Origin: Deltaproteobacteria bacterium
GTDB taxonomy: Bacteria > Desulfobacterota > GWC2-55-46 > DRQE01
Direction of reading: 5' to 3'
Assembly: GCA_016219105.1 (NCBI GenBank)
Contig: JACRCI010000047.1
Location: 1-46,014 of the forward strand
Length of the DNA stretch: 46,014 bases
Shown piece by piece: positions 2,418-34,565 of the stretch. The stretch's first letter is position 1. The number at the start of each line of letters is the position of its first letter. Below the pieces are notes generated by a model. The model was given only the letters and a program-made list of their open reading frames with translations. It did not search any database and was not told where the DNA came from. A program made the position numbers and the translations under genes.

Positions 2418-2438
2418 CCAACCAGCCGTCCTCGACGG
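2418..2438 (-). repeat. 21-nt hairpin+tail repeat (intergenic copy)
   Basis: Minus strand reads CCGTC-GAG-GACGG-CTGGTTGG. Confidence 0.8.
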
Positions 2439-2445
2439 CCCATCA

Positions 2446-2475
2446 TTTACAACCCGCCGGATTATTTGGTATAAT
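2446..2475 (+). promoter_or_regulatory. sigma70-type promoter upstream of hemW
   Basis: TTTACA, 18 bp, then TATAAT with an extended -10 TG. Confidence 0.55.
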
Positions 2476-2558
2476 CTTTCAAAGACCGTAAATGGGCGCA
2501 GACCTCGTAAGGAGCGTAGCGCCGCGCAGGCAAAGAAAACGGAAGAACTGAAAAGGCC

Positions 2559-3749
2559 TTGCTGAAAACATCCGGAAGACAAAAAAAGGACACCCTCGGC
2601 ATCTACGTCCACATACCCTTCTGCAAAAGGAAGTGCCCGTACTGCGATTTCAACTCGGTCGCGGCCGTCGGGGACGGCTGGATAGCCGTCGGAACGCCTG
2701 AAAAAGAGTACGCGGAAAGCGTGCTCATGGAGTTTTCCTCCATCGCTGAAAGGGAGGGGCTCGGGGAGCGGATACGCGCGGTCGAAACCCTGTATTTCGG
2801 CGGCGGCACCCCCTCCATTTTTTCACCTGATACGATAGCCCGCATCATCGGCGGGATACGCCGCGTAATCCCTCTCTCGGACAACGCCGAGATTACCCTT
2901 GAGGTGAATCCGGAAACCGTTGATGGAAAAAAACTCCGCGGCTTCAGGGACGCCGGTATAAACCGCCTGAGCATAGGCATCCAGTCTTTAAACCCAACGG
3001 AACTCAAAACCCTCGGCAGGCTCCACTCGGCTGAAAAGGCCGTGGAGGCCGTCGCGCTTTCAAGGGACGCCGGGTTTAAGAACATCGGGGTGGACATCAT
3101 GTTCGCCGTGCCGGGCCAGACGTTTCGGGGATGGGAAAAGACGCTCATTGAAATAACGGGGCTCGCTCCCGAGCATGTGTCAATATACGGGCTTACCGTT
3201 GAGAAAGGCACCCCCTACCACGGGTTATTGAAAAAAGGAGAGCTCGTGCTGCCGTCCGAAGGTCTCTACGCCGACATGTACCGCTGCGGCGCCAGGGTCA
3301 TGAAGGAAAACGGCTACGCGCGCTACGAGATATCGAACTTCGCTCTCGACGGCTTTGAATGCAGGCACAACATGAGATACTGGCTGGGAAAAGACTATAT
3401 AGGGCTTGGGGCAGGCGCCCATTCCTATCTGGGCCTAAGCGGCCAGGGACTGAGGTGGTGGAACGAGCCCTCCCCGGGCCGTTATATGGAGATGGCCGGG
3501 AAAGGGTTAAGCCCTTCGGCCGGCTCGGAGACGCTTAAGGTCGAGGAGGAGGCGACGGAAAGGATTATGCTGGGCCTGAGGCTTAAAGAGGGCATAAGGG
3601 AAAACGAATTCATCGAACGCTTCGGCTCGCCTCCGGCGGAGTTCATCCTGCGCTGGAAAGAGCTGAACGAGCTCGGGCTCATACGCGCCGAGGACGGCTT
3701 TATCGCCCTGACCCAGAAGGGCATACTTTTTTCAAACGAGGTCTTTTAG
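2559..3749 (+). CDS. hemW: Radical SAM heme chaperone HemW (HemN-like)
   Basis: YVHIPFCKRKCPYCDF radical SAM motif, YFGGGTPS, YEISNF and HNMRYW; lies directly upstream of hrcA. Confidence 0.9.
   Translation: MLKTSGRQKKDTLGIYVHIPFCKRKCPYCDFNSVAAVGDGWIAVGTPEKEYAESVLMEFSSIAEREGLGERIRAVETLYFGGGTPSIFSPDTIARIIGGIRRVIPLSDNAEITLEVNPETVDGKKLRGFRDAGINRLSIGIQSLNPTELKTLGRLHSAEKAVEAVALSRDAGFKNIGVDIMFAVPGQTFRGWEKTLIEITGLAPEHVSIYGLTVEKGTPYHGLLKKGELVLPSEGLYADMYRCGARVMKENGYARYEISNFALDGFECRHNMRYWLGKDYIGLGAGAHSYLGLSGQGLRWWNEPSPGRYMEMAGKGLSPSAGSETLKVEEEATERIMLGLRLKEGIRENEFIERFGSPPAEFILRWKELNELGLIRAEDGFIALTQKGILFSNEVF
2665..2685 (+). repeat. 21-nt hairpin+tail repeat inserted in frame in hemW
   Basis: CCGTC-GGG-GACGG-CTGGATAG, encoding AVGDGWI just after the CxxxCxxC motif. 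Confidence 0.7.
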
Positions 3750-3803
3750 CGGACGGAGAAGGCCTCCGGCCTGGCGCGGCAAAAGGACAAAAACCTGATT
3801 TCC

Positions 3804-3832
3804 TTGACAACGGTTTTTCACGCTGGTATCTT
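3804..3832 (+). promoter_or_regulatory. sigma70-type promoter of hrcA-grpE-dnaJ
   Basis: TTGACA, 17 bp, then TATCTT with extended TG; GAGGAGG RBS before the GTG at 3865. Confidence 0.65.
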
Positions 3833-3864
3833 TCTTTAAAGAGCCGCATAAACGAGGAGGCGAC

Positions 3865-4902
3865 GTGACGACCCTCACGGAACGCGCGGAAAAGATACTC
3901 ATAGAGATAGTCAAGGTGTATATCTCGACGGCCGGGGCGGTAAGCTCCGGGAGCATCGCGAAGACCCGCCGCGTGGGCCTCAGCCCCGCCTCCGTACGAA
4001 ACGTGATGGCCGAGCTTGAACGTCAGGGCTACATCACCCGGCCGCACGCCTCCTCCGGAAGGGTGCCGACGGACAAAGGCTTCCGCCTGTATGTGGACAG
4101 CCTGCTTGAGGTCGAAGAGCCGCGCGAAGACGACAAACACCGCATAAGGGCCTGCTGCGAAAACACCCTTGTCTGCGATGGAATGGTGCGCGGCGCCACA
4201 AGGATGCTCTCCAGCATCACAAGCTGCGCCGGGTTTGTCCTCGTGCCGCGCAGGGCCGGGTTTTTGATAAGGCACGTACGGTTCCTCCCGGTGGACGACT
4301 CCTTCATACTCGTCGTCATCGTCTCAACCAACGGGATCGTCAACACAAGGCCGGTAAGAAGGGAAAAAGGGTTCGCCGGTATAGACCTTGAAAAGGCATC
4401 GAACTACCTGAACTCCTTTTCCGCCGGCCTTACGATGGAGGAACTGAGGGACAGGGTCATGGAGGAGATGGGGAAGGAAAGGAACCTCTACGACGGGCTC
4501 TTCAAGGCGGCGCTCCGGCTCGGCCTGATGATAGGGGAGACGGCCGCGAGTAACGGCGACGCCGAGGGCGACATATACGTCGAAGGCAGGGCGAACATAT
4601 TCGACCAGCCCGAATTCGCAATTGACATCGAGCGGATGAAGCGCGTATTCGCCGCCTTCGAGGAAAAAAGCCTGCTCGTCAGGATACTCGACGAGAGCAT
4701 CAAGGAGAGGGGCGTGCGCATCTCCATCGGCTCGGAGTGCGACACGAAGGGGTTCGAGGGGCTCAGCCTTGTCGCCGCCTCTTACGGAAAGGACGAATCT
4801 GCGCTTGGCACCGTCGGGGTCATCGGGCCTGTCAGGATGAACTATCCAAGGATTATCCCGCTTGTAAACTACGCCGCAGGACTCCTCACCGAAGCCCTTT
4901 AG
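3865..4902 (+). CDS. hrcA: Heat-inducible transcription repressor HrcA
   Basis: SPASVRNVMAELE, PHASSGRVPTDKGFRLYVD and GVIGPVRMNY motifs. Confidence 0.95.
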   Translation: MTTLTERAEKILIEIVKVYISTAGAVSSGSIAKTRRVGLSPASVRNVMAELERQGYITRPHASSGRVPTDKGFRLYVDSLLEVEEPREDDKHRIRACCENTLVCDGMVRGATRMLSSITSCAGFVLVPRRAGFLIRHVRFLPVDDSFILVVIVSTNGIVNTRPVRREKGFAGIDLEKASNYLNSFSAGLTMEELRDRVMEEMGKERNLYDGLFKAALRLGLMIGETAASNGDAEGDIYVEGRANIFDQPEFAIDIERMKRVFAAFEEKSLLVRILDESIKERGVRISIGSECDTKGFEGLSLVAASYGKDESALGTVGVIGPVRMNYPRIIPLVNYAAGLLTEAL

Positions 4903-4968
4903 AACGCCGTCTTCTTAAAATTCTGGAGGAAAAAAGTCCAATCTCAAGACATGACGGGGTGCACGGAT

Positions 4969-5520
4969 ATGGCCGACGAAAAAAAGACAGAGGGGACGGA
5001 GGAAGGGAAAGAATCTCCTGAACAGGGCGCCGGGGCCGGAGAATCGGCCGTGGCCCGGCTGACGGAAGAGCTTGAGGCCAGGGCGAAAGAGGCCGCGGGA
5101 AACCATGACAAGTTCCTCAGGAAATGCGCCGACCTCGAAAACTACAAAAGGCGGATGGAAAAGGAACTCTCCTCGGTTGTTCAGTTCGCTAACGAAGACC
5201 TGATAAAGGAGATACTCCCGATAGTGGACAGCCTCGAAAGGGCGCTTGAGCACCGCGGGGAGGAGCCGGGGGAGGCGGCGGCCTCGTCCCTTATCGGGGG
5301 GGTCGATCTGACCCTCAGGAAGATGTCGGATATCCTCAAAAAGTTCGGGGTGGAGGAGATACGGGCCGAGGGCGGAAGGTTCGACCCCGCAAGGCACGAG
5401 GCGCTCTCCCACGAGGAAAAGGAAGGGTTTGAGAGCGGGGCGGTCATAAAGGAACTGCAAAAGGGTTATATCCTCAGGGACAGGCTCCTCAGGCCCTCGC
5501 TCGTTATAGTCGCAAAATAA
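4969..5520 (+). CDS. grpE: Nucleotide exchange factor GrpE
   Basis: ADLENYKRR, ILPIVDSLERAL, FDPARHEA and KGYILRDRLLRPSLV motifs. Confidence 0.95.
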   Translation: MADEKKTEGTEEGKESPEQGAGAGESAVARLTEELEARAKEAAGNHDKFLRKCADLENYKRRMEKELSSVVQFANEDLIKEILPIVDSLERALEHRGEEPGEAAASSLIGGVDLTLRKMSDILKKFGVEEIRAEGGRFDPARHEALSHEEKEGFESGAVIKELQKGYILRDRLLRPSLVIVAK

Positions 5521-5598
5521 AACCAGGGGGAGGCGCCGGCTGGCACGCCTCGCGGCGCCGGCGGGTTGGCCGGGGGAGACCGAAGGGCCCGTAACGTT

Positions 5599-6702
5599 AT
5601 GTCAAAGGACTACTACAGCATACTCGGCGTAAGCCGCAACTCGACCGATGACGAGATAAAGCGGGCTTACAGAAGGCTCGCCCACATGTACCACCCGGAC
5701 AAGCACGCATCCGAGGGCGACAAGGAAGAAGCCGGGGAGAAGTTCAAGGAGATAAACGCGGCCTACGAGGTGCTTAAAAACCCTTCGAGGAGGGCGCAGT
5801 ACGACCGGTTCGGACAGGCCGGCGCCGGAGCGGACTTCGGCGGCGCGGCTGATTTCGGAGGGGACTTCGGGGATTTCTTCGGAGACATGTTCTCGGAGTT
5901 TTTCGGGGGCCGCAGGCGCCCCGGGCCTGAGGCGGGCGCGGACTTAAGATACGACCTCACGGTATCCTTCACCGAGGCGGCGTTCGGGACCACGAAAAAG
6001 ATCATCATCCCCAAGGTCGCTCATTGCAAGACCTGCCAGGGCCTCGGCGCCAGGCCCGGCACATCCCCCAAACGCTGCGGCCGATGCGGCGGCTCAGGCC
6101 AGGAAAGGTTCCAGCAGGGGATATTCAGGATTGCAAAGACATGCCCGGAGTGCCGCGGCGCCGGCGCGGTCATCGAGAACCCCTGCGCGGAGTGCCGCGG
6201 CGCCGGCGCGGTAAAGATCGAACACTCGCTTACGCTCAATATACCCGGCGGGGTGGATACGGGCAGCAAGCTCAGGGTGGCCGGCGAAGGCGCCTCAGGG
6301 ACGCGCGGAGGCCCGGAGGGGGACCTCTACGTGTTCATAAGCGTCGAACCCCATCCCATATTCAGGAGGGAGGAAGACGACGTTATATGCGAGGTGCCGA
6401 TAAGCTTCCCGCAGGCGGCCCTCGGGACCGAGATAGAAGTCCCCACGCTCGAAGGGCCCGTGAAGCTGAAGATACCGCCCGGGACGCAGCCGGGAAAGAT
6501 TTTCAGGCTCAAGGCAAAGGGCGTTGCGTCCCCTGGCGCGCCGCGGCGCGGAGACCATCTCGTTTACATAAGGATAGAAACGCCGGCGAAACTCAACATG
6601 AGGCAGAAGGAACTGATCGAGGAGTTCGCGCGGATAAGCAACGACGACGTGTTCCCCCATAAAAAAAGCTTCCTCGACAAGGTGAAGGAGATGTTCGGAT
6701 GA
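5599..6702 (+). CDS. dnaJ: Molecular chaperone DnaJ
   Basis: J domain with HPD, a G/F region and four CxxCxGxG repeats; start at MSKDYY. Confidence 0.95.
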   Translation: MSKDYYSILGVSRNSTDDEIKRAYRRLAHMYHPDKHASEGDKEEAGEKFKEINAAYEVLKNPSRRAQYDRFGQAGAGADFGGAADFGGDFGDFFGDMFSEFFGGRRRPGPEAGADLRYDLTVSFTEAAFGTTKKIIIPKVAHCKTCQGLGARPGTSPKRCGRCGGSGQERFQQGIFRIAKTCPECRGAGAVIENPCAECRGAGAVKIEHSLTLNIPGGVDTGSKLRVAGEGASGTRGGPEGDLYVFISVEPHPIFRREEDDVICEVPISFPQAALGTEIEVPTLEGPVKLKIPPGTQPGKIFRLKAKGVASPGAPRRGDHLVYIRIETPAKLNMRQKELIEEFARISNDDVFPHKKSFLDKVKEMFG

Positions 6703-8348: not shown

Positions 8349-8364
8349 AAGACACACTTACCAT

Positions 8365-8393
8365 TTGCAGATTTTTTCCTTTTAGGTTATACT
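8365..8393 (+). promoter_or_regulatory. sigma70-type promoter, probably leaderless, for dksA
   Basis: TTGCAG, 17 bp, TATACT, then 6 nt to the ATG at 8400. Confidence 0.55.
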
Positions 8394-8399
8394 GGATGG

Positions 8400-8765: not shown

Positions 8766-8918
8766 CCTGACTTTACGCGCTTGCGGCGGCATTTATGCCC
8801 CATGGCCCCGCTAAACCCGCCGAGGCCCAGTGACCTGTCGTGTCCTCATCCATGCCCGCACTCCGTCCCCGACGGCCCGGCGGCCGGCTCAAAAAACAGG
8901 AAAGGCGTTTAAAACACC

Positions 8919-9923: not shown

Positions 9924-9960
9924 TCCCGCGGTGCGGGCTTAATTCCCCGACGTCATAACC

Positions 9961-12466: not shown

Positions 12467-12478
12467 TTCTTTACATAA

Positions 12479-23325: not shown

Positions 23326-24423
23326 ATGCTCGATTCTTTCCGCATGGAAAGATTGAAGGAGATGATAAAAAAACCGTTCCCGGCCCTGGCGAGGCCCGTG
23401 GGCACAATAAGACCGTTACCCTTGAAAACAGTCCTTGCCTCTATCGCCCTCTCCGTTTTTTTCCTTCATACTCACCTCGCATGGCCGGCTGACAGGACGG
23501 TCCATACCGCCGTCATTGCCCCGGAAATGCCGGAAAACGAAATGCCCATGCCCGCGGCCATCACCCTCTCCATTGCTACTTTCGGAAAAGCAGGATATTC
23601 CACGGCCCTCAGTGGCAGGCCGGCATGGCCATCTAACGGGAACGTCCCTCCCGACATCACGCGCGGCCCAGCCAAAGGCATGGAAATAGCCCTCACGTTC
23701 GACGGAGGGTCGGAGGCGGACGACGCCGAAATGATCCTCTCCACCCTCAGGGAGAAAGGGATAAGGACAACGCTATTCCTGACCGGGAGTTTCATGGAAA
23801 AATACCCGTGGCTCGTGAAAAGGATGGTGGAGGACGGACACGAGATAGGCAACCACACGATGAACCACCCACACCTTACGGACTACGAAAGAAGCTACCG
23901 CCAGACGACGAGCCACGGGGTTACGAAGGAGTTCCTCCAGACGGAACTGAGGGAGACCTCGCGGATTTTCACCTCTATAACCGGAGGCAGGATGGCGGGT
24001 ATGTGGCGGGCGCCTTACGGAGAAATAAACGATGAGATACGGCAGTGGGCGTTTGAAGAAGGCTACATGCACGTCGGCTGGACGTCCGACTATAAAAGGA
24101 GGGAAAGCCTCGACACCCTCGACTGGGTTTGCGACAGCTCCTCAAAACATTACCTCACCTCCGGAGAGATAAAAGACAGGATACTCAACTTCGGCATGGA
24201 CAAAGGGGGCCTCGGGGGCGGCATAATCCTCATGCACCTCGGGACCGAACGCGCGGGAGACAGGGTATCGGGAAAACTCGGCGAGATAATAGACGCGCTC
24301 AGGGAGAGGGGCTACGGTTTCGTTAAGGTATCAGCGCTCATAAAAGGGGATGAAAGGCTTAAACCCTTTATGGCCGGGGTAATAGCGCTGAGCGGAAAAG
24401 TTCCTGGAAAGGCCGCGCAATGA
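23326..24423 (+). CDS. Polysaccharide deacetylase (NodB/CE4) family, membrane-anchored or secreted
   Basis: IALTFDGG, TLFLTG, GHEIGNHTMNHP, WRAPYGE and GGIILMH motifs. Confidence 0.85.
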   Translation: MLDSFRMERLKEMIKKPFPALARPVGTIRPLPLKTVLASIALSVFFLHTHLAWPADRTVHTAVIAPEMPENEMPMPAAITLSIATFGKAGYSTALSGRPAWPSNGNVPPDITRGPAKGMEIALTFDGGSEADDAEMILSTLREKGIRTTLFLTGSFMEKYPWLVKRMVEDGHEIGNHTMNHPHLTDYERSYRQTTSHGVTKEFLQTELRETSRIFTSITGGRMAGMWRAPYGEINDEIRQWAFEEGYMHVGWTSDYKRRESLDTLDWVCDSSSKHYLTSGEIKDRILNFGMDKGGLGGGIILMHLGTERAGDRVSGKLGEIIDALRERGYGFVKVSALIKGDERLKPFMAGVIALSGKVPGKAAQ

Positions 24424-24432: not shown

Positions 24433-24453
24433 CCATCCAGCCGGCCATGCCGG
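24433..24453 (-). repeat. 21-nt hairpin+tail repeat between convergent genes
   Basis: Minus strand reads CCGGC-ATG-GCCGG-CTGGATGG. Confidence 0.75.
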
Positions 24454-24456: not shown

Positions 24457-25503
24457 CTAACCCCTCGTTCTGAAAAGCTCCCCCTTCTCCCCCCTTGAGA
24501 AAAGCAGCAGCACCATCCCCGCCGTCAGCACGAAAGAGCCCGCTATTATGAACCATATGCCCGGGTCTTTGTTTATCGTAAAAACCGCGTAAGGTGAAAC
24601 GATATGGTTAACGAGGGTTATGGTCTTGCCGCCTATACTTACGCCGCCTCCGGGCCGCGAAACATCGAGAAACCCGCTTTCGTTGTCATCAATCGAGGTT
24701 ATCTCCTGATACGGGTTACGGTACTGGCCGGAGCGCGAATAGGGTCTGCCTTCCACGTCAAAGGCCATGTCGGGGTACAGCGCGCCGAGCGAATACCGTT
24801 TCCCGTCAGCGGTTACGAAGCCTTTGCCGAAGCCGGCCTCTTTCCTTTCGCCGGATGCATCGAGGAGAAATCCCGTAACAGAGCGGCCGTGGTCAACGTA
24901 ATAAAAGGCCATACCGCGGTATATAAGGGGGCTGTTCGGGCGTATCCCGCCTTTTTTTACCTCGGTGCCGCCCTTTAAAAGGGTAACGGCCGAGGAAAGG
25001 CTCTCCACCTCTCCCGCGTCGTCGAACCTTACGTCAACGCCGTCGAGGCGCATGGACAGGCCTTCCGCGTGGGGCACGGCGAGGGCCTCCCCCTTTACGA
25101 CGAGGTTGCCGTAGGACCTGAAGCCGTAGAGGCTGCCGGCGAGGTGTCCGAGAAGCGCTATCAGAAACCCCACGTGCACGGCCTGCGGCAGGAAGGACCT
25201 GAAAGGGCTTTTCTTCCTTATTATGAGGTAAAGCCTGTCCGCCGTGCATACCGCGGTATTCACGGCAAAAAGTGCGATGAGGAAGACGAAGATGAATATC
25301 CAGAGGGTCTTGCCGGGATGCTCCGTCCCGGAGGTAAAGAGCCACGGCAGGAGGATTTCTCTGTCGAGGGCGTCAAAAAAAGCGCGGTTACGCAGAACAA
25401 CCATTGAACCAACGGCCGCGTCAATGCACACGAGCGCGGCAAGCACTATCGTAAGCGTGGTGGAGGCGAAGAAATTCCATACGCGCTTGAAGAAACCCGT
25501 CAT
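24457..25503 (-). CDS. ResB/Ccs1-like cytochrome c biogenesis protein
   Basis: WNFFAS N-terminus, TM helices with the conserved H (VHVGFLI), NSPL.YRG..FY and C-terminal DPGIW..GS TM. Confidence 0.75.
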   Translation of the reverse strand: MTGFFKRVWNFFASTTLTIVLAALVCIDAAVGSMVVLRNRAFFDALDREILLPWLFTSGTEHPGKTLWIFIFVFLIALFAVNTAVCTADRLYLIIRKKSPFRSFLPQAVHVGFLIALLGHLAGSLYGFRSYGNLVVKGEALAVPHAEGLSMRLDGVDVRFDDAGEVESLSSAVTLLKGGTEVKKGGIRPNSPLIYRGMAFYYVDHGRSVTGFLLDASGERKEAGFGKGFVTADGKRYSLGALYPDMAFDVEGRPYSRSGQYRNPYQEITSIDDNESGFLDVSRPGGGVSIGGKTITLVNHIVSPYAVFTINKDPGIWFIIAGSFVLTAGMVLLLFSRGEKGELFRTRG

Positions 25504-25767
25504 AAATGTTTTTTACCACAACCTCCCAGGGCTGTCAACGGAAGTGGCCGGCTGGTGGGCCTCTATCGCGGCACATGCGCGCCGCACGAATGAACCTCCC
25601 CGGCGCCCGGCTGCGGGTATCATGGAATATCGTTCCAAACAATCCGAAGTAAGCTTCGAGGAATCAAACCCGCATCGCGTGACAAAACACAGGGCTTACC
25701 TTGACTTTTCTCATGGTTTTGTTAAACTTTGAACGACCAAATACGCGAACAACCGGGAATAATCGCT

Positions 25768-26238
25768 ATGGAGACACCTGTAGAAACCAACGAACAGAAA
25801 AAGACCACAATCGAGAACCGCGTCATCGGCTGGTTCGGCCGGCTCTTCAGCTACCTCGACGATATCATCCTCATCATCGTAAGCCTCGGCATAATAGCCG
25901 TCGCGATAATCGTGATGTCGGAGGCCTTCTTCGACATATTCACGATCAGGGCGTATTCGGTCACCCACATAATCAGCGACCTGATGTTCGTGCTCATAAT
26001 CATGGAGCTCTTCAGGCAGGTCATGCGCCAGTTCCTGCGCCATCAGTTCTCGCTGAACCCCTTCCTCTTCATAGGCGTCATAGCGAGCATAAGGGGCATG
26101 CTGATAATGCAGATGGGCCTGGCCATGGGCGAGGTTGAATGGACGCGCGGGGTCATACAGGCCGGGGTATACGCCGTCATCGTATTGATCCTCGTTGTCT
26201 GCTACTACTTCACATCCAAGACCGAAAGGGCGCGATAG
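25768..26238 (+). CDS. PsiE-family (phosphate-starvation-inducible) membrane protein
   Basis: Four TM helices; DLMFVLIIMELF and PFLFIGVIASIRGML motifs. Confidence 0.8.
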   Translation: METPVETNEQKKTTIENRVIGWFGRLFSYLDDIILIIVSLGIIAVAIIVMSEAFFDIFTIRAYSVTHIISDLMFVLIIMELFRQVMRQFLRHQFSLNPFLFIGVIASIRGMLIMQMGLAMGEVEWTRGVIQAGVYAVIVLILVVCYYFTSKTERAR

Positions 26239-26393
26239 CATCGGCCCTTAAAACACCGGCCATGACCCTCCGTAAATCCCCCTCAGCCTTGACAAACCAG
26301 GCCCGGCGCCTATATTCGCATCATAATCAAAGACCCGATAAAGGTCTTTGGCCGCCTGAAAGCCGGGCAATCTCAGTGAAAGGCGCTGTCTTT

Positions 26394-27398
26394 ATGAGTT
26401 GCGGACCAAAGAAAATATCATCCCTCTTTCTCTCGGCCGCGCTTGTTTTTTTGCTCGCCGCGCCTGCCGGGTCGTATGCGGCCGCGGCAATATCCGCTTA
26501 CAGAGGTATCTTCAAACCCTTCAACTTAAGCGACGGCAAATTCAGGATAGCCATACGGCAATTCAACCGCAAGGGGAAACAGGAACTGCTTACGGTGGAC
26601 CCCTCCACGTTCGAGACCTTTGTTGAGGACGCCTCGGGCGTTGATTTTTCAAAGGCCGGTCAACCGGCGAGGCCGGCTGGTGGGCCGTCGAGGACGGCTG
26701 GCGGATATGAAAAAACCCTCAACGCCTCCCCTTTCATAAAGGCCCTCACGAGATACTCCGCCCCGCCCGTAAGGCTTCAGAACCACGGAATAACAAAGGC
26801 GGAAAACACGCGGGGAGGCGTTTTCCTCACCGTTGACCTGTGCCCGTCCAAAAGGCCGTTCGATAGGGACATGTTCCTGGCCGCAATTGAATTTTCAGGC
26901 GATAAAATCCCAGCTCCAATGGCCATTGCAATAACCGGGGCGTGGATAAAGACGCATAAAGGGGAACTTACCTGGATTTTGGAGCAGGTCAAGGCAAGGA
27001 AACTTGACGTTACGTGGATTAACCACAGCTATTCCCATCCCTATTCTGGCAAGGGAAAACCCCTGACTGAGGATTTCCTCCTGACCAGGGGGGTTGACTT
27101 TGAAAAAGAGGTTCTGGACAACGAATCCCTGATGCTTGATTCCGGCATAACCCCCTCGCCTTTTTTCCGCTTCCCGGGCCTTGCCTCGGACGGACGGACG
27201 ATGAAAAAACTCAAGGAACTGTCGCTTATCCCGGTTGGCGCGGACGCGTGGCTTGCGAAGGGGGAAACGCCCTCGGACGGGAGCATCATACTCGTGCACG
27301 GCAACGGCAACGAGCCGCGTGGCATAGAGAAACTTCTGGAGTTTTACAAAAGGGAGAAGGGGAGGCTTGAATTACTGCCGGTCAAAGACGCGTTTTGA
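26394..27398 (+). CDS. Secreted divergent polysaccharide deacetylase-like protein
   Basis: Signal peptide; LTVDLCPS, WINHSYSHPY, FFRFPGL and IILVHGNGNE motifs. Confidence 0.75.
   Translation: MSCGPKKISSLFLSAALVFLLAAPAGSYAAAAISAYRGIFKPFNLSDGKFRIAIRQFNRKGKQELLTVDPSTFETFVEDASGVDFSKAGQPARPAGGPSRTAGGYEKTLNASPFIKALTRYSAPPVRLQNHGITKAENTRGGVFLTVDLCPSKRPFDRDMFLAAIEFSGDKIPAPMAIAITGAWIKTHKGELTWILEQVKARKLDVTWINHSYSHPYSGKGKPLTEDFLLTRGVDFEKEVLDNESLMLDSGITPSPFFRFPGLASDGRTMKKLKELSLIPVGADAWLAKGETPSDGSIILVHGNGNEPRGIEKLLEFYKREKGRLELLPVKDAF
26664..26705 (+). repeat. Two tandem 21-nt hairpin+tail repeats in frame within the CDS
   Basis: CCGGCGAGGCCGGCTGGTGGG + CCGTCGAGGACGGCTGGCGGA, encoding PARPAGG-PSRTAGG. 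Confidence 0.85.
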
Positions 27399-27412
27399 AC
27401 CTTGTGTTTTAG

Positions 27413-28807
27413 TTATCCCCCGACCTCCCCTCCGACCGTTATCTCCGGTATCCTCAACGTCGGCTGCGCGTCGGCAACTGGCACGCCCTGCCCGTCCTTT
27501 CCGCATGTGCCTACGGCGAAGCCGAGGTCGGAGCCGACCATGTCTATGGTCATAAGCACCTGCGGCCCGTTGCCCGTGAGGGTCGCGCCCCTTACCGGCT
27601 CGCCGACCCTGCCCTTTTCTATCAGATAACCCTCGCTCACCTCGAAGACAAAATCGCCGTTTACCGTATTGACCTGCCCCCCGCCCATCCTCCTTACGAA
27701 AAGCCCTTTTTCGAGAGAGGCCATAATGTCTCCCGGGGAGTGCCGGCCGGGCGCTATCATTGTATTGGTCATGCGCGGTATGGGACGGTGGTGATAGGAC
27801 TCCCTCCTTCCGTTGCCCGTGGATTTCACGCCGTCCTTCATGGCGGTTATCCTGTCGTACATGTAACTTTTCAGAACGCCGTCCTCCACGAGCACTGTCT
27901 TCTGCGTCGGGGTGCCCTCGCCGTCATAGAAACCCGACCCGCGCTTAAACGGGATTCGGCCGTCGGCTATGACGGTTATAACCGCGGACGCGACAACCGC
28001 GCCTAATTTTCCGGAATAGACCGAAAGCCTTTCCTGCGCCAGGTCGGCTTCCAGCCCGTGGCCGACGGCCTCGTGTATCATGGTCCCGCCGGCCTCGCTC
28101 GACAGCACAACGCCCATCCGCCCGCCCGGCGCCTTGCGGGCCCCGAGCATCATGACGGCCCTCGCCGCCGCCTTCTCGGCCACGGCCTCAACGGGCGTCA
28201 AGTCGAATATCTCAAGCCCCATCGCCCCGCCCATTGGTTCGTAACCCGTCTGGATGACGCCGTTTTCCTCGGCTACGACCTGACAGAGGTAAAGGATGGA
28301 CGTCCTATTTTCCTCCACCCACTCGCCGAGGGAATTAACCACGGCCGTTTTTTTAAGCCCGTCTCCGTATACGACCCTTACCTGCCGTATCCTCCTGTCA
28401 AGCGCCCTGGCCGAGGCGTTGCCCCTTGTAACGAGCTCTATCTTTTTTGACAGGTCCACCCCGCCAGGGGGAACCTTTATATCAAACCCCGGAGAGAAGG
28501 CCCTGTTCTTGAGGGCTATGTCCTTTTGGGACTCGCCCTCCCTGACGGCCGCTGCCACAACGTCCGCGACTTCACTGAGGCCGCCTTCGGTCAAGTCGTT
28601 CGTGTAGGCGTAGAAGGTCTTGAACCCGGCAATCACCCGTATCCCGGCCCCCCTGTCCCTGCCTGATACGACCTTCTCGACCCTGTCCTCCTCGGAGCTT
28701 ATCGAGGTAGAGAGGGTATCTTCAACGTAGACGTCGGAAAAATCGCCGCCGTTTTTGAGCGCCCTTTTTATTATTTTAAACGGGTCAAACCCTTCTAAAA
28801 GTCCCAT
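27413..28807 (-). CDS. tldD: TldD metalloprotease
   Basis: HEAVGHGLEAD (HExxxH), GNGRRESY, PRMTNT and GTCGKDGQGVPV motifs. Confidence 0.93.
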   Translation of the reverse strand: MGLLEGFDPFKIIKRALKNGGDFSDVYVEDTLSTSISSEEDRVEKVVSGRDRGAGIRVIAGFKTFYAYTNDLTEGGLSEVADVVAAAVREGESQKDIALKNRAFSPGFDIKVPPGGVDLSKKIELVTRGNASARALDRRIRQVRVVYGDGLKKTAVVNSLGEWVEENRTSILYLCQVVAEENGVIQTGYEPMGGAMGLEIFDLTPVEAVAEKAAARAVMMLGARKAPGGRMGVVLSSEAGGTMIHEAVGHGLEADLAQERLSVYSGKLGAVVASAVITVIADGRIPFKRGSGFYDGEGTPTQKTVLVEDGVLKSYMYDRITAMKDGVKSTGNGRRESYHHRPIPRMTNTMIAPGRHSPGDIMASLEKGLFVRRMGGGQVNTVNGDFVFEVSEGYLIEKGRVGEPVRGATLTGNGPQVLMTIDMVGSDLGFAVGTCGKDGQGVPVADAQPTLRIPEITVGGEVGG

Positions 28808-28830
28808 TGCGCGCCTCCGTAAACTAAAAG

Positions 28831-28859
28831 AGTATAACAGCGGCGGAAGGCCGCGTCAA
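28831..28859 (-). promoter_or_regulatory. sigma70-type promoter for tldD
   Basis: Minus strand TTGACG, 17 bp, TGt-TATACT. Confidence 0.65.
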
Positions 28860-28947
28860 GAGAGAGGGGCCGGCGTGGCCGGGTGGTAGCCCGGCGCTTT
28901 CCATATCCATATTGCCATTACACTCCTATCTGTTGTAATATCTATCC

Positions 28948-30261
28948 ATGGAGCTTTTTAAAAAGATACCGGCGTGGCCGGCTGGTGGGCATGGAAGGAA
29001 CCCGCATAGGGCCAAGGCATCCCCCCTGTCCCCTTTAGCCGACAGGATGAGGCCCGCGGACCTCGGGGAATTTTTCGGGCAGGGGCACCTCGTTTCAGAG
29101 GGAAAATTCCTGAGGAGGGCCATAGAAAAAGGAGAGGTCCCCTCCATCATCCTGTGGGGCCCTCCGGGATGCGGCAAAACCACCCTTGCCCGCATCATCG
29201 CCGAGAGCTCTGGCTCGGACTTCACGGCGTTCTCGGCGGTCATGTCCGGGGTAAAGGAGATACGGGAGGTAATAAAACTCGCGTGGCGGAACCTGGGCCT
29301 CGGCAAAAAGACGGTCCTCTTCGTGGACGAAATCCACCGCTTCAACAGGGCTCAGCAGGACGCCTTCCTCCACCACGTCGAGGACGGCACCTTGACGCTC
29401 ATCGGCGCGACGACCGAAAACCCCTCTTTCGAGGTAAACGCCCCGCTCCTTTCAAGGTGCAAGGTCTTTGTCCTGAACGCGCTCGCATCCGAGGACATAA
29501 AGACGCTCGTGGAGAGGGCATTGAAGGACACGGAGCGCGGCCTGGGCAGGCTCAACGCAAAGGCGGACCAGGATGCCCTTGAGTTTATCGCCGGGTTTTC
29601 CCACGGGGACGCAAGAGAGGCCCTCAATACGCTCGAAAATTCCTGCATGATGGCCCCGGCGGACGCGGGCGGCGCGAGGGTCATAACCGTTGACATCGTA
29701 AAAGAGGCGATGCAGAAAAAGGCCCTCCTCTACGATAAGGGCGGGGAGGAACACTATAACGTCATATCGGCGTTCATAAAAAGCATGAGGGGTTCGGACC
29801 CCGACGCGGCCCTCTACTGGCTCGCGCGCATGGTCGAGGCAGGCGAGGACCCGCTCTTCATAGCGAGACGCATGGTGATATTCTCATCCGAGGACATAGG
29901 GAACGCGGACCCCGCGGCCCTCTCGGTCGCCGTCGCGGTAAAGGAGGCCGTTCATTTCGTGGGCATGCCCGAGGGCTTTATCCCCCTGGCGCAGGGTGCT
30001 GCGTATCTGGCGACGGCCCCCAAATCCAACGCGTCATACGCGGCGTATCTCAGGGCAAAGGAGGACGTCGTCGGGAAAGGGGCGCTCCCCGTTCCGCTCC
30101 ACCTGAGGAACGCGCCGACCAGGCTGATGAAGGACCTCGGCTACGGAAAAGACTACAAATACCCGCACAACTACGAGGGCTCGAAGGTGGACGAGGCCTA
30201 CCTGCCCGCTGAGCTCAAGGGAAAAAAATACTACACGCCGCCGGAGGGAAAAAAACAATGA
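28948..30261 (+). CDS. rarA: Replication-associated recombination protein A (RarA/MgsA)
   Basis: PLADRMRP, GPPGCGKTT, DEIHRFN, GATTENPSF, SAFIKSMRGSD and SEDIGNADP motifs. Confidence 0.95.
   Translation: MELFKKIPAWPAGGHGRNPHRAKASPLSPLADRMRPADLGEFFGQGHLVSEGKFLRRAIEKGEVPSIILWGPPGCGKTTLARIIAESSGSDFTAFSAVMSGVKEIREVIKLAWRNLGLGKKTVLFVDEIHRFNRAQQDAFLHHVEDGTLTLIGATTENPSFEVNAPLLSRCKVFVLNALASEDIKTLVERALKDTERGLGRLNAKADQDALEFIAGFSHGDAREALNTLENSCMMAPADAGGARVITVDIVKEAMQKKALLYDKGGEEHYNVISAFIKSMRGSDPDAALYWLARMVEAGEDPLFIARRMVIFSSEDIGNADPAALSVAVAVKEAVHFVGMPEGFIPLAQGAAYLATAPKSNASYAAYLRAKEDVVGKGALPVPLHLRNAPTRLMKDLGYGKDYKYPHNYEGSKVDEAYLPAELKGKKYYTPPEGKKQ
28969..28989 (+). repeat. 21-nt hairpin+tail repeat in the rarA N-terminus; a further copy at 28870-28890
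   Basis: CCGGC-GTG-GCCGG-CTGGTGGG, encoding PAWPAGG. Confidence 0.8.
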
Positions 30262-30797: not shown

Positions 30798-30833
30798 GGC
30801 CGCGGACCACGTCCCTCAATCCGTCAAATCAAT

Positions 30834-31322: not shown

Positions 31323-31418
31323 CAGTTTGCGGAAAAACTCGTTCAGCAGCCTGCTAAATCGTAACACTGGATAACCTATCAGAAGCAATAATAGTGGTCA
31401 ATTTAAAAATCCGCCTTT

Positions 31419-31451
31419 ATTGTCAACCTTTGAAAATAACAGGTTGACAAT
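31419..31451. promoter_or_regulatory. BirA biotin-repressor operator overlapping the bioB -35
   Basis: ATTGTCAACCT...AGGTTGACAAT, i.e. TGTCAAC-N15-GTTGACA, matching the BirA consensus TGTtAAC-N14/16-GTTaACA directly upstream of bioB. The right half contains TTGACA. Confidence 0.88.
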
Positions 31452-31480
31452 GTCCGCCTTCCATGTTATTGAGAAATACC

Positions 31481-32470
31481 ATGAACGACATCTCAAAAGC
31501 GCTTAAAAAAGCTGAGGAAAAGGCCCTAAGCGGCATCGGCCTATGTCATGAGGACGCGCTCCGGTTCAGCGATATCCCCGAAGACCGGATATTCGAGATA
31601 TTACCCTATTCGGACAGGATACGGCGCCGCTTCAAGGGGGTGGAGGTAAACCTGTGCTCGATAGTCAACGCAAAGAGCGGCCTGTGCAGGGAGGACTGCT
31701 CGTTCTGCGGCCAGTCAATAAAATACTCAACCGGCATAAACGCCTACCCCATGATAGAGGCAGAGGAAATAGTGTCCAGCGCGCTACGGGCGGAAAAATC
31801 CGGGGCAAGGGAATTTTCGATAGTGACGAGCGGGACAAAGATAGAAAAGAAGAGCGACGTCTCAACGCTTAAAAAGGCCATTTCAGGGATAAAGGAGACC
31901 GGCCGCCTTGAGACCTGCGCATCCCTCGGCATAATGAAAAGGGAAACGCTTGAAGAGCTTAAAGACGCGGGGCTTGAGAGCTACCACCATAACCTCGAAA
32001 CGTCCCGGAGTTTTTTTCCGAACGTCTGCACCACGCACGGCTACGACGAGGACGTTGCCACGGTCAGGGCCGCCGGGGAACTCGGCCTTCACGTCTGCTC
32101 CGGCGGCATATTCGGCCTCGGCGAGGGATGGAAAGACCGGGTCGAGCTTGCCGGAACGCTGAGGGACCTCGACGTGGATTCCGTCCCCATAAACTTCTTA
32201 AACCCGCGGCCAGGCACGCCGCTTGAAAACGCGAGGAACTTGACGCCCCTGGAGTGCCTCAAGATAATAGCGCTTTTCAGGTTCATGCTGCCGTCCAAGG
32301 ACATAATAGTCTGCGGCGGAAGGGATGTGAATCTGCGCGATATGCAGTCGCTCATATTCGCCGCAGGAGCAAACGGCATGATGGTGGGGGATTACCTTAC
32401 GACAAAGGGGAGGCCCCCGGCGGACGACTTGAGGATGCTCGAAGACCTCGGACTTAAACCTAAGGCATGA
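31481..32470 (+). CDS. bioB: Biotin synthase
   Basis: NAKSGLCREDCSFCGQS, YHHNLETS, CSGGIFGLGE, SVPINFL and GDYLTT; alternative start at 31463. Confidence 0.96.
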   Translation: MNDISKALKKAEEKALSGIGLCHEDALRFSDIPEDRIFEILPYSDRIRRRFKGVEVNLCSIVNAKSGLCREDCSFCGQSIKYSTGINAYPMIEAEEIVSSALRAEKSGAREFSIVTSGTKIEKKSDVSTLKKAISGIKETGRLETCASLGIMKRETLEELKDAGLESYHHNLETSRSFFPNVCTTHGYDEDVATVRAAGELGLHVCSGGIFGLGEGWKDRVELAGTLRDLDVDSVPINFLNPRPGTPLENARNLTPLECLKIIALFRFMLPSKDIIVCGGRDVNLRDMQSLIFAAGANGMMVGDYLTTKGRPPADDLRMLEDLGLKPKA

Positions 32471-32478
32471 CCTTACTC

Positions 32479-32539
32479 TGTCACCCTGAACCTTGTTTCA
32501 GGGTCTCTATTTGGATCCTGAAATGAATTCAGGATGACA
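32479..32539. repeat. REP doublet (REPIN-like palindrome) between bioB and bioF
   Basis: TGTCACCCTGAACCTTGTTTCAGGGTC and GATCCTGAAATGAATTCAGGATGACA: two hairpins in inverted orientation. Confidence 0.75.
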
Positions 32540-32550
32540 AAAAGTCTGAC

Positions 32551-33705
32551 ATGAATTCAGCGATAGAAAAGACCCTTAAAAAGATCAAGGACGAAGGACT
32601 TTTCCGCTCCCTCACCCTCATAGAGGGGCCGCAGTCTCCGCGCGTAAGGATCAGCGGAAAAGAGGTTCTGTGTCTCTGCTCCAACGATTACCTGGGGCTT
32701 GCGAACCACCCGGAGGTCAAAGAGGCGGCGATAAAAGCGACGGAAAGATACGGCGCCGGGGCAGGCGCGTCGAGGCTCACCTCCGGCGCGATGGAGCCGC
32801 ACAGGGAGCTTGAGGACAGGATAAAAAGATTCAAAAAGGCCGAGGCCGCCCTGGTCTTCAATTCCGGCTGGCACGCCAATACCGGCATTATCCCGGCCAT
32901 GGCCGGCAGGGGCGCGGACGTCTTCTCCGACAGGCTCAATCACGCGTCCATCATAGACGGCTCGATCCTCGGCAGGGCGAACCTCAGGCGATACCCGCAC
33001 GGCGACGTAAACGCGCTTGAAGGCCTTCTCGGAAGATCAACGGCCGAACGGAAACTCATCGTGACGGACGGCGTTTTCAGCATGGACGGCGACGTCGCGC
33101 CGCTCAAGGAGATTATAGCCCTTGCCGAAAGGCATGGCGCCATGGTCTTTCTCGACGACGCGCACGCCGTCGGATGTATCGGTAAAAACGGAAGGGGCAC
33201 CCTCGAACACCTCGGCATCGAACGCCGCCAGTCTGTAATCGAGGCCGGAACGCTCGGAAAGGCCTTCGGGTCATACGGCGCGTTCGTAACCGGCGGCAGG
33301 GAACTCATGGAACTTCTCATGAACAGGGCGCGCAGTTTCATCTACTCGACCGCCCTGCCGCCGGGCGTATGCGCTGCAAGCTCAAAGGCGATAGAGATAG
33401 CCGGAAGGGAGCCTCAGAGGAGAAAAAGACTTTCGGAAAACGCCGCCTTCATGAGGGACGGGCTGAGAAAAAACGGCTTCGACACGCTCAAAAGCTCGAC
33501 CCACATAATCCCGCTTGTAACGGGCAAAGCTCAAAGGACAATGGAGATAACGGGAAGGCTCCTCGACAGCGGCGTTTTCGTGCAGGGCATCCGTCCGCCG
33601 ACAGTGCCGCAGGGGACATCCAGACTCAGGATAACGGTCAGCTCGGAGCATAAACCCGCGGACCTCGAACGCGCGATCGAGGTCATCGCAAGGGCCTGCG
33701 AATGA
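32551..33705 (+). CDS. bioF: 8-amino-7-oxononanoate synthase
   Basis: SNDYLGLA, NHASIIDG, DGVFSMDGD, DDAHA, GTLGKAFG and IRPPTVP motifs. Confidence 0.96.
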   Translation: MNSAIEKTLKKIKDEGLFRSLTLIEGPQSPRVRISGKEVLCLCSNDYLGLANHPEVKEAAIKATERYGAGAGASRLTSGAMEPHRELEDRIKRFKKAEAALVFNSGWHANTGIIPAMAGRGADVFSDRLNHASIIDGSILGRANLRRYPHGDVNALEGLLGRSTAERKLIVTDGVFSMDGDVAPLKEIIALAERHGAMVFLDDAHAVGCIGKNGRGTLEHLGIERRQSVIEAGTLGKAFGSYGAFVTGGRELMELLMNRARSFIYSTALPPGVCAASSKAIEIAGREPQRRKRLSENAAFMRDGLRKNGFDTLKSSTHIIPLVTGKAQRTMEITGRLLDSGVFVQGIRPPTVPQGTSRLRITVSSEHKPADLERAIEVIARACE

Positions 33706-34565
33706 AGCCGCCGGCCAATCAGCCGTCCACGACGGCCCACCAGCCGCTCTCAGCGGCCAAGAAAATCTTTGTCCACGGATGGGCGACCGACAGCCGCGTC
33801 TGGCGGGAATTCATAAAAGACCCGTCGAGGACGGCTGGCGGGCCGGCGAGGCCGGCTGGTGGGGGCGAAGACGCCGTCGCCGTAAATCTTCCCGGTCATG
33901 GCGACTGGCCCTCCGGTCATGACAATCAGCCAGCCGGCGGGAAAAAATGGGACTCGCCGACATTCGCGCCTGCGATTGAAGCGCTCCTCGGCTCTGCGCC
34001 GGACTCTATCGGCATAGGCTGGTCGCTCGGGGGGGAGATACTGATGCACCTCGCCTCAACCAACGCCGTAAGGTTCCGGGGGCTTATCCTTGTCTCCACC
34101 ACGCCGTCTTTCATCGAGCGCGACGGCTTTCCGTGGGCACAGAAAAAGGCCCGCGTCAAAAAAATGCTCGCGGACATGGGGAAAAACCCGGCCGAGACGC
34201 TCAAGAGGTTTTATGCCCTGAACTTCACGGAAGAGGAGTTCCTCACCGCCAGGGCAAAGGGTTTCTTAAAACTCTACTCAGGGCATCCTCAGAGCGCCCT
34301 TAATTATGACTATGACGGACTGACGTTGGCCCTTAAGGCGCTCATGGACGCGGACCTGAGGGATGGGCTGAGAAAAATCACCGTGCCCACGCTTATCATG
34401 CACGGCTCACTGGACAATGTCTGCCCGATAGGGGCGGCCCATTATCTGAAGGAGAATATCACCGGGGCTACGCTCAGGATATTTGAAGGCGCGGGACACG
34501 CGCCATTTATCACCCGCCCGGAGGAGTTCAGTAAAGCCGTGTCCGGTTTTACGGAGGGGATATGA
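33702..34565 (+). CDS. bioH: Pimeloyl-ACP methyl ester esterase (BioH-like alpha/beta hydrolase)
   Basis: VHGWA, LPGHG, GWSLGG (Ser), GSLD (Asp) and AGHAPF (His); lies in the bio operon. Confidence 0.85.
   Translation: MKPPANQPSTTAHQPLSAAKKIFVHGWATDSRVWREFIKDPSRTAGGPARPAGGGEDAVAVNLPGHGDWPSGHDNQPAGGKKWDSPTFAPAIEALLGSAPDSIGIGWSLGGEILMHLASTNAVRFRGLILVSTTPSFIERDGFPWAQKKARVKKMLADMGKNPAETLKRFYALNFTEEEFLTARAKGFLKLYSGHPQSALNYDYDGLTLALKALMDADLRDGLRKITVPTLIMHGSLDNVCPIGAAHYLKENITGATLRIFEGAGHAPFITRPEEFSKAVSGFTEGI
33715..33756 (-). repeat. Two tandem 21-nt repeats (minus orientation) in the bioH N-terminus
   Basis: Minus strand reads CCGCT-GAG-AGCGG-CTGGTGGG + CCGTC-GTG-GACGG-CTGATTGG. Confidence 0.8.
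33822..33863 (+). repeat. Two tandem 21-nt repeats in frame within bioH
   Basis: CCGTCGAGGACGGCTGGCGGG + CCGGCGAGGCCGGCTGGTGGG, encoding PSRTAGG-PARPAGG. Confidence 0.85.

Follow-up and report, generated by a model that had tools for sequence, protein, structure and literature searches.

A dispersed 21-nt hairpin unit inserted in frame in the genes of a deltaproteobacterial genome

Hairpin units in the 46-kb window

The stretch of DNA analyzed here, referred to below as the window, is a whole contig of 46,014 nucleotides (nt) from a Deltaproteobacteria bacterium (JACRCI010000047.1 of assembly GCA_016219105.1; C12 in our numbering), which belongs to a 1.87-Mb metagenome-assembled genome (MAG) of 137 contigs, with 56% G+C and 94.9% completeness. 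The genes for HemW, for a RarA-like AAA ATPase and for BioH, together with an open reading frame (ORF) at 26139-27398, contain copies of a 21-nt unit, which is also present between genes and throughout the MAG. Its consensus, CCGKC-GAG-GMCGG-CTGGTTGG, comprises a 5-bp G+C stem, a 3-nt loop, and an 8-nt G/T-rich tail. The unit is probably a lineage-restricted, non-autonomous insertional element, which enters genes in frame and whose copies are then filtered by selection.

Thirteen copies lie where they had been placed in an earlier reading of the window made from the sequence alone (the sequence-only reading), with 0-6 mismatches to the nearer of the two consensus forms used for fuzzy matching, type A (CCGTCGAGGACGGCTGGTTGG) and type B (CCGGCGAGGCCGGCTGGTTGG). 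Five of them are intergenic. The copy at 2418..2438 on the minus strand is identical to the type A consensus (CCGTC-GAG-GACGG followed by CTGGTTGG; 0 mismatches), sits 59 nt past the stop codon of the gene at 470-2359, and folds, as DNA, into a 6-bp hairpin. The copy at 8855..8875 (minus strand, 6 mismatches) has an intact hairpin and a decayed tail, the type B copy at 24433..24453 (minus strand, 3 mismatches) is located between the convergent genes 23326-24423 and 24457-25503, the copy at 25539..25559 (plus strand, 5 mismatches) has a decayed left stem arm, and the copy at 28870..28890 (plus strand, 4 mismatches) lies between the divergent genes tldD and rarA.

The other eight copies are found within coding sequences (CDSs), a number which the sequence-only reading had also given, with one in hemW, two in ORF 26139-27398, one in the rarA-like gene, and four in bioH (33702-34565), these names being assigned through NCBIfam, in which ORF 26139-27398 matched no family. 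A further site that it had regarded as a decayed copy, at 23620..23640 (plus strand) in a deacetylase gene, has 8 mismatches and was rejected, so this gene is not counted as a host. The hemW copy (2665..2685, plus strand, 3 mismatches; gene 2559-3749) encodes AVGDGWI just past the radical-SAM Cys motif, and the rarA-like copy (28969..28989, plus strand, 2 mismatches; gene 28948-30261) encodes PAWPAGG seven codons past the conserved MELF start. In ORF 26139-27398, a tandem pair with type B followed by type A (26664..26705, plus strand; 1 and 3 mismatches in the units starting at 26664 and 26685, respectively) encodes PARPAGG-PSRTAGG. The bioH gene contains an antisense tandem pair at its N-terminus (33715..33756, minus strand; 2 and 5 mismatches in the units at 33715 and 33736), which encodes ANQPSTT-AHQPLSA and includes one unit with the compensated stem CCGCT/AGCGG, and a sense pair in the order A then B (33822..33863, plus strand; 2 and 1 mismatches in the units at 33822 and 33843), which encodes PSRTAGG-PARPAGG.

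All of these peptides read as had been proposed. The three stems described (CCGTC/GACGG, CCGGC/GCCGG, and CCGCT/AGCGG) were found, as were loops of varying sequence and tandem pairs in either order. The CDS copies are on both strands and use three of the six possible frames, in agreement with the claim that they occupy different frames. The tail from which the sequence-only reading had built the unit, CTGGYGGG, is present as a minority form, the genome-wide tail being CTGGTTGG. The exact pattern CCGNNRNGNNCGGCTGGYGGG has 5 matches in the window compared with 0 in 100 dinucleotide shuffles, and at ≤3 mismatches there are 18 matches compared with a shuffle mean of 3.97 and a maximum of 10. The copies in the region 26002-29347 are not an artefact of this assembly, given that an independent assembly of a public sequencing run spans the region with 8 differences and no gaps.

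Insertions relative to orthologues

Comparison with orthologues shows the copies to be insertions. Host proteins were aligned with those of 9-11 related genomes from the same family or order, at 44-77% protein identity, and the peptides, which the sequence-only reading had taken to be additions and not ancestral sequence, were missing from every relative examined at all seven of the sites compared (11 copies). In HemW, AVGDGWI faces a full gap in 10 of the 11 orthologues, and the eleventh has unrelated residues at this position. The two BioH blocks, PSRTAGGPARPAGG at the internal site and ANQPSTTAHQPLSA at the N-terminus, are each missing in 11/11 orthologues, the 13-residue extra linker that contains IPAWPAG after the MELF start of RarA is missing in 9/9, and the block PARPAGGPSRTAGG of ORF 26139 is missing in both of the orthologues found (2/2). 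PcrA presents two further sites, SGKGGWL at site 1 and an 18-residue block that includes AHQPSST at site 2, each of which is missing in 9/9 orthologues.

Removal of the exact unit at PcrA site 1 (21 nt) converts GGFF-SGKGGWL-AERV into GFFSERV, where the orthologue pattern is DFF[SAT]ER, and the insert end and its flank have at most 1 nt in common, which leaves no target duplication. When 42 nt are removed from the BioH N-terminus, the protein begins MKPPAKKIF... and has the same length as the MKPSPKKIF... of the nearest orthologue, and the same removal at the BioH internal site and in ORF 26139 leaves the sequence in frame and of orthologue-like length. None of these four sites has a target-site duplication. 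Given that the removal of exactly 21 or 42 nt restores orthologue-like sequence, the inserted piece is, on these comparisons, the 21-mer in the register CCGKC...NNGG, entering without duplication of the target.

In BioH, the inserted blocks can also be followed in a wider set of proteins and in a structural model. A search for closer relatives found no protein nearer than 51% identity apart from BioH itself, and among 35 database homologues nothing aligned to residues 1-13, 47-52, and 68-78, with 0-19% aligned at residues 53-56. The AlphaFold2 model (36 sequences) has a mean predicted local distance difference test (pLDDT) score of 87.7, and values below 50 occur only at residues 41-55, which correspond to the sense double copy, and at residues 71-79, which belong to another genome-specific insert. 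The latter (window 33903-33941, approximately residues 68-78) is an 11-residue block (DWPSGHDNQPA...) that is missing in the 35 homologues and has pLDDT values below 50; as it ends in NQPAGG, it may be a decayed antisense copy.

With regard to ORF 26139-27398, its first ~100 codons (26139-26430) have no counterpart in the two orthologues, and its real start is probably the Met ahead of a signal-peptide-like stretch (MSCGPKKISSLFL...). The conserved part of this ORF has an NHSYSHPY motif.

A covarying family dispersed through one genome

Across the MAG, a regular expression for the core of the unit gave 386 sites. Fuzzy searches yielded 73, 105, 134, 133, and 128 matches at 0, 1, 2, 3, and 4 mismatches, respectively, compared with 0, 0, 0, 3, and 30 in the control, in which the same search was run on the reversed (not complemented) genome. 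Cumulatively, this amounts to 445 copies compared with 3 at ≤3 mismatches, and 573 compared with 33 at ≤4. The family described below is the set of 445 copies with ≤3 mismatches to either consensus form, so that the genome-wide excess over control expected of a true family is more than 100-fold.

These 445 copies are grouped into 351 loci, of which 274 hold one unit, 64 two, 10 three, 2 four, and 1 five, at a density of about 1 copy per 4 kb and in both orientations, and 94 of the 94 spacings between neighbours are exactly 21 nt, all of them head-to-tail. Array neighbours have the same stem type in 0.50 of the pairs, compared with 0.49 expected, and given that this is only the random level, the arrays are not mainly local duplications; the modular, repeated insertion suggested in the sequence-only reading fits better. 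The tails of neighbours are somewhat more alike than by chance (0.53 vs 0.37). A third subfamily, CCGGCGAGGCCGGTTGGTTGA, has two linked tail changes and 15 identical copies over 13 contigs, its sites including C105:7410, C136:13653, and C92:14335, and the TGA in its tail is never used as the stop codon of a gene. A role of the tail TGA in supplying stop codons was rejected (0 of 38 copies).

The hairpin is maintained across the family. Five Watson-Crick pairs can be formed in 372 of the 445 copies, four in 62, and fewer in 11, and there are 10 distinct fully paired stems. The combinations at stem positions 4 and 10 are T-A in 216 copies, G-C in 181, T-C in 20, and G-A in 8. When both partners are off consensus, 18 cases are paired and none is unpaired, which bears out the view that the structure itself is being conserved, and this excess is conservative, because the search threshold penalizes double changes. 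Single departures in the stem number 57, of which 11 are G-T and 46 are of other kinds. As single-stranded DNA, each unit adopts the expected hairpin of 5-6 bp, of about -6 kcal/mol, with fold z-scores that are modest (-0.35 to -3.5) in the G+C-rich context.

Variants of the unit have been copied to dispersed loci. Rare compensated units are found again in identical form on separate contigs, as with CCATCGAGGATGGCTGGTTGG on contigs C6, C67, and C71, and the CCATC/GATGG stem form is represented by three copies among these identical rare units. This recurrence of identical rare variants indicates that variant masters were copied. The absence of stop codons from all six frames of the consensus, which is found in 311 of the 445 copies, was considered as a possible special property and rejected, given that 50% of the shuffles of the consensus and 28% of random genomic 21-mers are likewise stop-free.

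Beyond this genome, a search of 30 relatives of the same order, from 8 families, did not detect the family, the core pattern having 0-1 chance matches in each of them compared with 315 here. Two groundwater sequencing runs from different studies hold the stretch, one of them (X1) with 92% of the sampled words and the other (X2) with 13%; X1 probably represents the source sample, and no RNA run was among those listed. In X1, what looked like an additional pair at 26664-26704 was rejected, being due to the look-alike array at 33822-33863. The X2 contigs are about 93-95% identical to the window, and the joints between copies that they contain reveal that this ~94% relative also carries the family. 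One X2 contig of 549 nt spans 28904-29473 (570 nt) with exactly 21 gaps, and another spans 32542-34249 with 54 gaps; the X2 gaps of 21, 54, and 23 nt fall in spans that contain copies or, in the case of the 23-nt gap, that start inside one. This suggests presence/absence differences between close relatives, with the positions of the gaps not located within their spans.

Broader scans gave little more. A 26-nt pattern with 97 sites in this genome had 0 matches in metagenome contigs of the Joint Genome Institute (JGI), and a looser two-hairpin pattern matched 9 JGI contigs of 64-72% G+C at one site each, of which six look like chance. In contigs L176, L178, and L181 (71-72% G+C), one locus holds 3-4 tandem 21-nt units of the form CCGGC-GCG-GCCGG-CTGGGGCC, an array that is purely local, with no dispersed copies on those contigs. 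The scan of viral contigs returned a single chance match in a low-complexity stretch, and that of genome contigs with a loose 21-nt pattern returned, among the 80 of 117 stretches listed, single chance matches in G+C-rich genomes, which are uninformative.

The location of the copies was determined with gene calls obtained by scoring ORFs for codon usage with greedy selection, which gave 1695 genes covering 86.7% of the genome. Of the 445 copies, 279 (63%) are in CDSs, 160 are intergenic, and 6 lie across a gene edge, with 3.7 times more copies per kb in intergenic DNA than in CDSs. At least one copy is present in 159 of the 1695 genes (about 9%), and 184 copies in 105 genes lie more than 120 nt from both ORF ends. 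The hosts that could be named are BamA, PilQ, IF-2, GlnE, CheA (5 copies), FtsK, PcrA, and MutS2, eight names that come from the ten annotated members of the twenty highest-scoring genes with internal copies. CheA (C46:6117-7868), MutS2 (C84:11782-14247), and GlnE (C5:2014-5310) have 4-5 copies each, and the five in CheA are antisense and lie within 150 nt, presumably in an inter-domain linker. None of the 39 tRNA/tmRNA genes is interrupted, and two copies are found 20-30 nt from tRNA genes, at C13:14906-14992 and C95:4399-4475 (tRNA-Leu and tRNA-Pro).

The positions and frames that these copies occupy have been filtered. Positions relative to the ORF are skewed to its first tenth (62/279), a skew for part of which over-long start calls may account. 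The 223 CDS arrays are read in the sense frames PSRTAGW (35 arrays), VEDGWL (49), and RRGRLV (19), and in the antisense frames PTSRPRR (8), NQPSST (52), and QPAVLD (60), a bias with a chi-square p of 1e-10, or 8e-10 when the first 90 nt of the ORFs are left out. The depleted frames are the two arginine-rich ones, RRGRLV and PTSRPRR, and the stop codons of variant units account for only part of this depletion. The mismatch rate at the 15 fixed positions is 4.3, 4.1, and 3.6% at codon positions 1-3 and 4.1% in intergenic copies (p = 0.59), which leaves no signal of faster decay at third codon positions, in a test that the 3-mismatch cut-off weakens or biases. These flat rates fit filler peptides without constraint on the identity of their residues.

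The balance of strands within genes bears on a route in which the unit would spread through an RNA intermediate, by retro-insertion of a small structured RNA. Such a route has been proposed for cyanobacterial small dispersed repeats (SDRs). On our own reading of the consensus, the sense strand could lengthen the stem by G-U pairs between successive tails, and the arrays in unidirectional intergenic spacers run with transcription in 54 cases and against it in 29, both of which would suit an RNA. Against this, genic arrays are antisense (120) as often as sense (103), the single mismatches in the stem are mostly not G-T (11 vs 46), and the 95%-complete assembly has no reverse transcriptase domain, so that we regard this route as very unlikely.

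High density, presence in both orientations, the absence of strand bias, and frame preference within genes are features of DNA uptake sequences, and the unit, with its 1 copy per 4 kb and its biased frames, has them all. It might then be a signal selected by the host, either uptake-sequence-like or protein-binding, which was built up by point mutation and biased recombination. This is scarcely credible here, given that the copies are clean indels of 7 or 14 residues at 7/7 sites and not substitutions, that the tandem spacing is exactly 21 nt, and that the stem covaries, which a linear recognition word does not need.

Insertion sites, mobilization, and known relatives

The sequences that flank the 351 arrays resemble the unit itself. 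The first three bases downstream are C, C, and G in 76, 75, and 72% of the arrays, followed by G or T at position 4 in 83% and by C at position 5 in 58%; on the upstream side, 82% of the arrays have G or A at position -1 and 50% have G at position -2. Measured as a prefix, a downstream match of at least CCGKC occurs in 206 of the 351 arrays, compared with about 3% of random sites, and these continuations consist of 129 partial units of 7-16 nt and 77 decayed full units. A model in which the left hairpin arm comes from a duplicated target was ruled out, as the flank and the unit next to it have the same K in just 77 of 136 cases (48/39 and 29/20). At the inferred empty sites in HemW and at the BioH N-terminus, 7-11 nt of the inter-unit junction were already there. 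Sites like GG^CCGKC, with ^ marking the junction of two units, can be read as a preference and not a requirement.

Given this, the spread of the unit can probably be pictured as follows. Units would be inserted into the chromosome in steps of 21 nt or whole multiples of it, with no duplication of the target, and their landing would be favoured where the target already resembles the junction GG^CCGKC. Through this preference, the ends of existing copies would themselves serve as targets, which would generate head-to-tail arrays of mixed unit types. As 21 nt equal seven codons, an insertion would never shift the reading frame, and selection would discard the copies in harmful places and harmful frames, so that the genic survivors would be those in N-termini, linkers, and disordered surface loops, read through as filler peptides of 7 or 14 residues. 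The movement itself would resemble that of repetitive extragenic palindromic (REP) and IS200/IS605 elements, with the enzyme acting in trans. By analogy with those systems, we tentatively propose a hairpin-recognizing, single-stranded DNA nuclease or transposase that would cut at the unit junction, a part of the scheme in which we have appreciably less confidence than in insertion itself.

The same flanks would also suit a mechanism with no dedicated enzyme, in which the units are copied by template switching during repair or replication, or by microhomology-primed copying from other arrays, and in which the periodic template keeps the changes at multiples of 21 nt (21n). Microhomology-primed copying would yield both junction-like flanks and partial ends, and accordingly the flanks that look like a unit start (CCGKC) in about 75% of the arrays, the many partial-unit ends of variable length, and the junction-like sequence at the HemW and BioH N-terminal empty sites are expected under it, as is the lack of any transposase linked to the family. 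This mechanism is kept in view because there is no replication-strand bias and partial units are frayed. It is nonetheless improbable, given that clean insertions are found at sites unlike the unit (PcrA site 1, ORF 26139, and BioH internal), that the compensatory upkeep of the hairpin (18 vs 0) suggests that a structure is recognized, for which copying driven by homology has no need, and that 30 relatives share the general repair machinery and lack such a family.

The search for a mobilizing enzyme centred on HUH transposases, to which the sequence-only reading had likened the system. The Pfam model Y1_Tnp (PF01797) gave one sub-threshold match over the assembly, and the same gene was recognized by the NCBIfam model NF047646 for REP-associated tyrosine transposases (RAYTs), at 158.8 bits compared with a cut-off of 80. 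This gene lies at C99:2-433 (also given as 2-340) and is cut at profile position 36 by the contig start. The unit might therefore be conceived as an ordinary REP family, moved by the genome's own RAYT, that happens to tolerate genes. Its layout is REP-like, with a short hairpin and a 5'-foot tetranucleotide, CCAG on the other strand, conserved in 94-96% of copies, and REPs of 21-65 nt with a guide tetranucleotide are known RAYT substrates (PMC6006769) and intragenic REPs are on record (PMC3733652). On the other hand, a GTAG-tagged palindrome with a 9-bp stem begins 12 bases past the RAYT stop (about C99:446-475), a single copy in the assembly and unrelated to the 21-mer, so that the locus resembles a REPtron, i.e., a RAYT flanked by its own units, without an expanded REP family. 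As the 21-mer has no GT[AG]G tag and 63% of its copies are intragenic, movement by this RAYT is unlikely, and no link of the family to an HUH enzyme was found in the assembly.

Several results weigh against an insertional element moved by an enzyme in trans, beginning with this locus. The only Y1/HUH gene adjoins that different palindrome on a 4.5-kb contig without any 21-mer, and RAYTs above the cut-off occur in 15 of 31 genomes, including this one, and so in 14 of the 30 relatives, in each of which the repeat pattern has no more than 0-1 matches by chance. Neither an RVT_1 domain nor a TnpB zinc-ribbon domain was found in the assembly, and there is a single rve integrase. Ten intervals are bounded by inverted intergenic copies, and the five proteins annotated from four of them are all housekeeping (rubrerythrin, LpxK, RnpA, an amino-acid kinase, and ribosome recycling factor), with no nuclease or transposase among them. 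Lagging-strand, single-strand transposition would predict a strand bias, and the arrays are balanced in orientation (175 plus and 176 minus; skew-adjusted mean of 0.0007, p = 0.85, with GC skew as a proxy for the direction of replication), as they are relative to the local gene-majority strand (180/171). The 129 of 351 arrays that finish in a partial unit of variable length are not explained by the model, and the flanks of PcrA site 1, ORF 26139, and the BioH internal site are unlike the junction. No empty site was seen directly at the DNA level in a near-identical genome, the 21-nt gap of X2 being unplaced within its 570-nt span, and all of the CDS and intergenic counts depend on a crude, in-house ORF-scoring caller.

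The minimal mobile hairpin element put forward in the sequence-only reading is supported in its insertions relative to orthologues and in its dispersed copying, and no enzyme could be tied to the repeat. A bolder version, which we regard as doubtful, would place the unit among the smallest mobile DNAs, as a codon-neutral, non-RAYT micro-element of 21 nt, moved either by an unrecognized hairpin nuclease, of the host or specific to the lineage, that cuts at GG^CCGKC or by templated repair. It would then be a member of a wider, undescribed class of in-frame mini-hairpin elements in uncultured groundwater bacteria, continually seeding disordered loops into about a tenth of the proteome.

The closest kin of the unit are the intragenic REPs, the Rickettsia palindromic elements (RPEs), and SDR-like palindromic repeats, among which it is very small and unusually gene-dwelling. 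A limited literature search turned up no account of such a family from this bacterial group. Intragenic REPs of the GTAG- and CGTC-tagged superfamilies are described in several species, where genes for replication and repair are frequent hosts (Di Nocera, De Gregorio & Rocco 2013, PMC3733652). The unit shares with them a high copy number of G+C-rich stem-loops, subfamilies that differ by complementary residues in the stem, an arrangement in singletons, head-to-tail pairs, and clusters, whole units in ORFs that add residues, commonly at N-termini, and hosts involved in replication and repair, here PcrA, MutS2, RarA, and FtsK. Unlike tagged REPs, it has neither the GTAG nor the CGTC tag, its conserved unpaired part being the 8-nt tail, and it has a 5-bp stem, a fixed tandem spacing of 21 nt, and no cognate RAYT.

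Measured against RAYT-dependent REPs, the family is a high-copy, short palindromic hairpin (445 copies, 372 of them fully paired), as these are. In place of the GT[AG]G 5'-foot of such REPs (PMC6006769), its foot reads CCAG on one strand, and on the opposite strand it varies or reads TTGG. No RAYT flanked by the unit was found, the 5' side of the C99 gene being lost at the contig end, and 279 of the 445 copies lie in called CDSs, whereas REPs are mostly described as intergenic (PMC3733652). Membership of this class consequently fails on three of the four features, i.e., the tag, the cognate RAYT, and the extragenic location.

The RPEs are elements of ~150 bp found in frame in unrelated housekeeping genes, with 44 insertions in R. 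conorii, and their peptides are compatible with the fold of the host protein (PMC10969869). The unit resembles them in its in-frame insertion into unrelated conserved genes and in being missing from orthologues (7/7 sites). It differs in its length (21 nt and not ~150 bp), its ~280 CDS copies compared with the 44 of R. conorii, its phylum, and its unrelated sequence, and in place of a 100-150-bp palindrome with a conserved peptide it presents a 21-nt unit read in all six frames.

Closest in size are the SDRs of heterocystous cyanobacteria, which Elhai et al. reportedly described in 2008 as dispersed, hairpin-forming repeats of 21-27 nt, apparently mobile without a known enzyme. The 21-mer, with its covarying hairpin, is likened to them by description only, and it is unrelated in sequence and belongs to a different phylum. 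One of them, SDR5, prefers HIP1 as its insertion word, and no SDR has been found outside the Nostocaceae (PMC5861425, PMC3116915).

The resemblance to IS200/IS605 elements is one of mechanism and not of membership. In the single-strand 'peel and paste' chemistry of these elements and of RAYT/REP systems (Quentin et al. 2018, PMC6006769), terminal inverted repeats are lacking, the target is not duplicated, a small hairpin is accompanied by a conserved tetranucleotide at its side, and insertion is favoured beside a short word like the element's own end. The first three of these features have a counterpart in the unit, and the fourth may have one. The specific word beside the insertion would be the CCG that follows 72-76% of the arrays, three well-resolved sites being without it. 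Unlike IS200/IS605 elements, the unit is a single 21-nt hairpin with no gene, has no replication-strand bias, and has no linked Y1 transposase.

What distinguishes the family is the combination of a unit of exactly seven codons, a fixed 21-nt spacing, a mostly intragenic location, the occupation of ~9% of the genes, and the lack of any cognate enzyme in the searches. If truly mobile, it would show how small a selfish DNA element can be, and how simple a route may lead to life within genes, through a seven-codon length and the removal of bad frames by selection. With about 9% of the called genes carrying copies, among them those for BamA, IF-2, FtsK, PcrA, MutS2, GlnE, CheA, HemW, RarA, and BioH, the family would steadily supply new surface loops and linkers and would amount to a natural experiment on how far insertions are tolerated. 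As no cognate enzyme was found in the assembly, it is also well suited to studying how repeats of the untagged REP-like and SDR-like kinds spread, a question that has long been open. In practical terms, the copies lengthen proteins, confuse start-codon calls, and can break assemblies.

Finally, two observations concern the tail. The BoxC or intrastrand-triplex motif (TMECO), as set out in PMC4666352, was considered and rejected, since the tail CTGGTTGG does not repeat the arm GMCGG. In the window, the minority tail octamer is found at 26676-26683, 28981-28988, 33737-33744 (minus strand), and 33855-33862. We take this octamer to be the Chi recombination hotspot of E. coli, from which the consensus tail would differ by one extra T, and the likeness is probably a coincidence.

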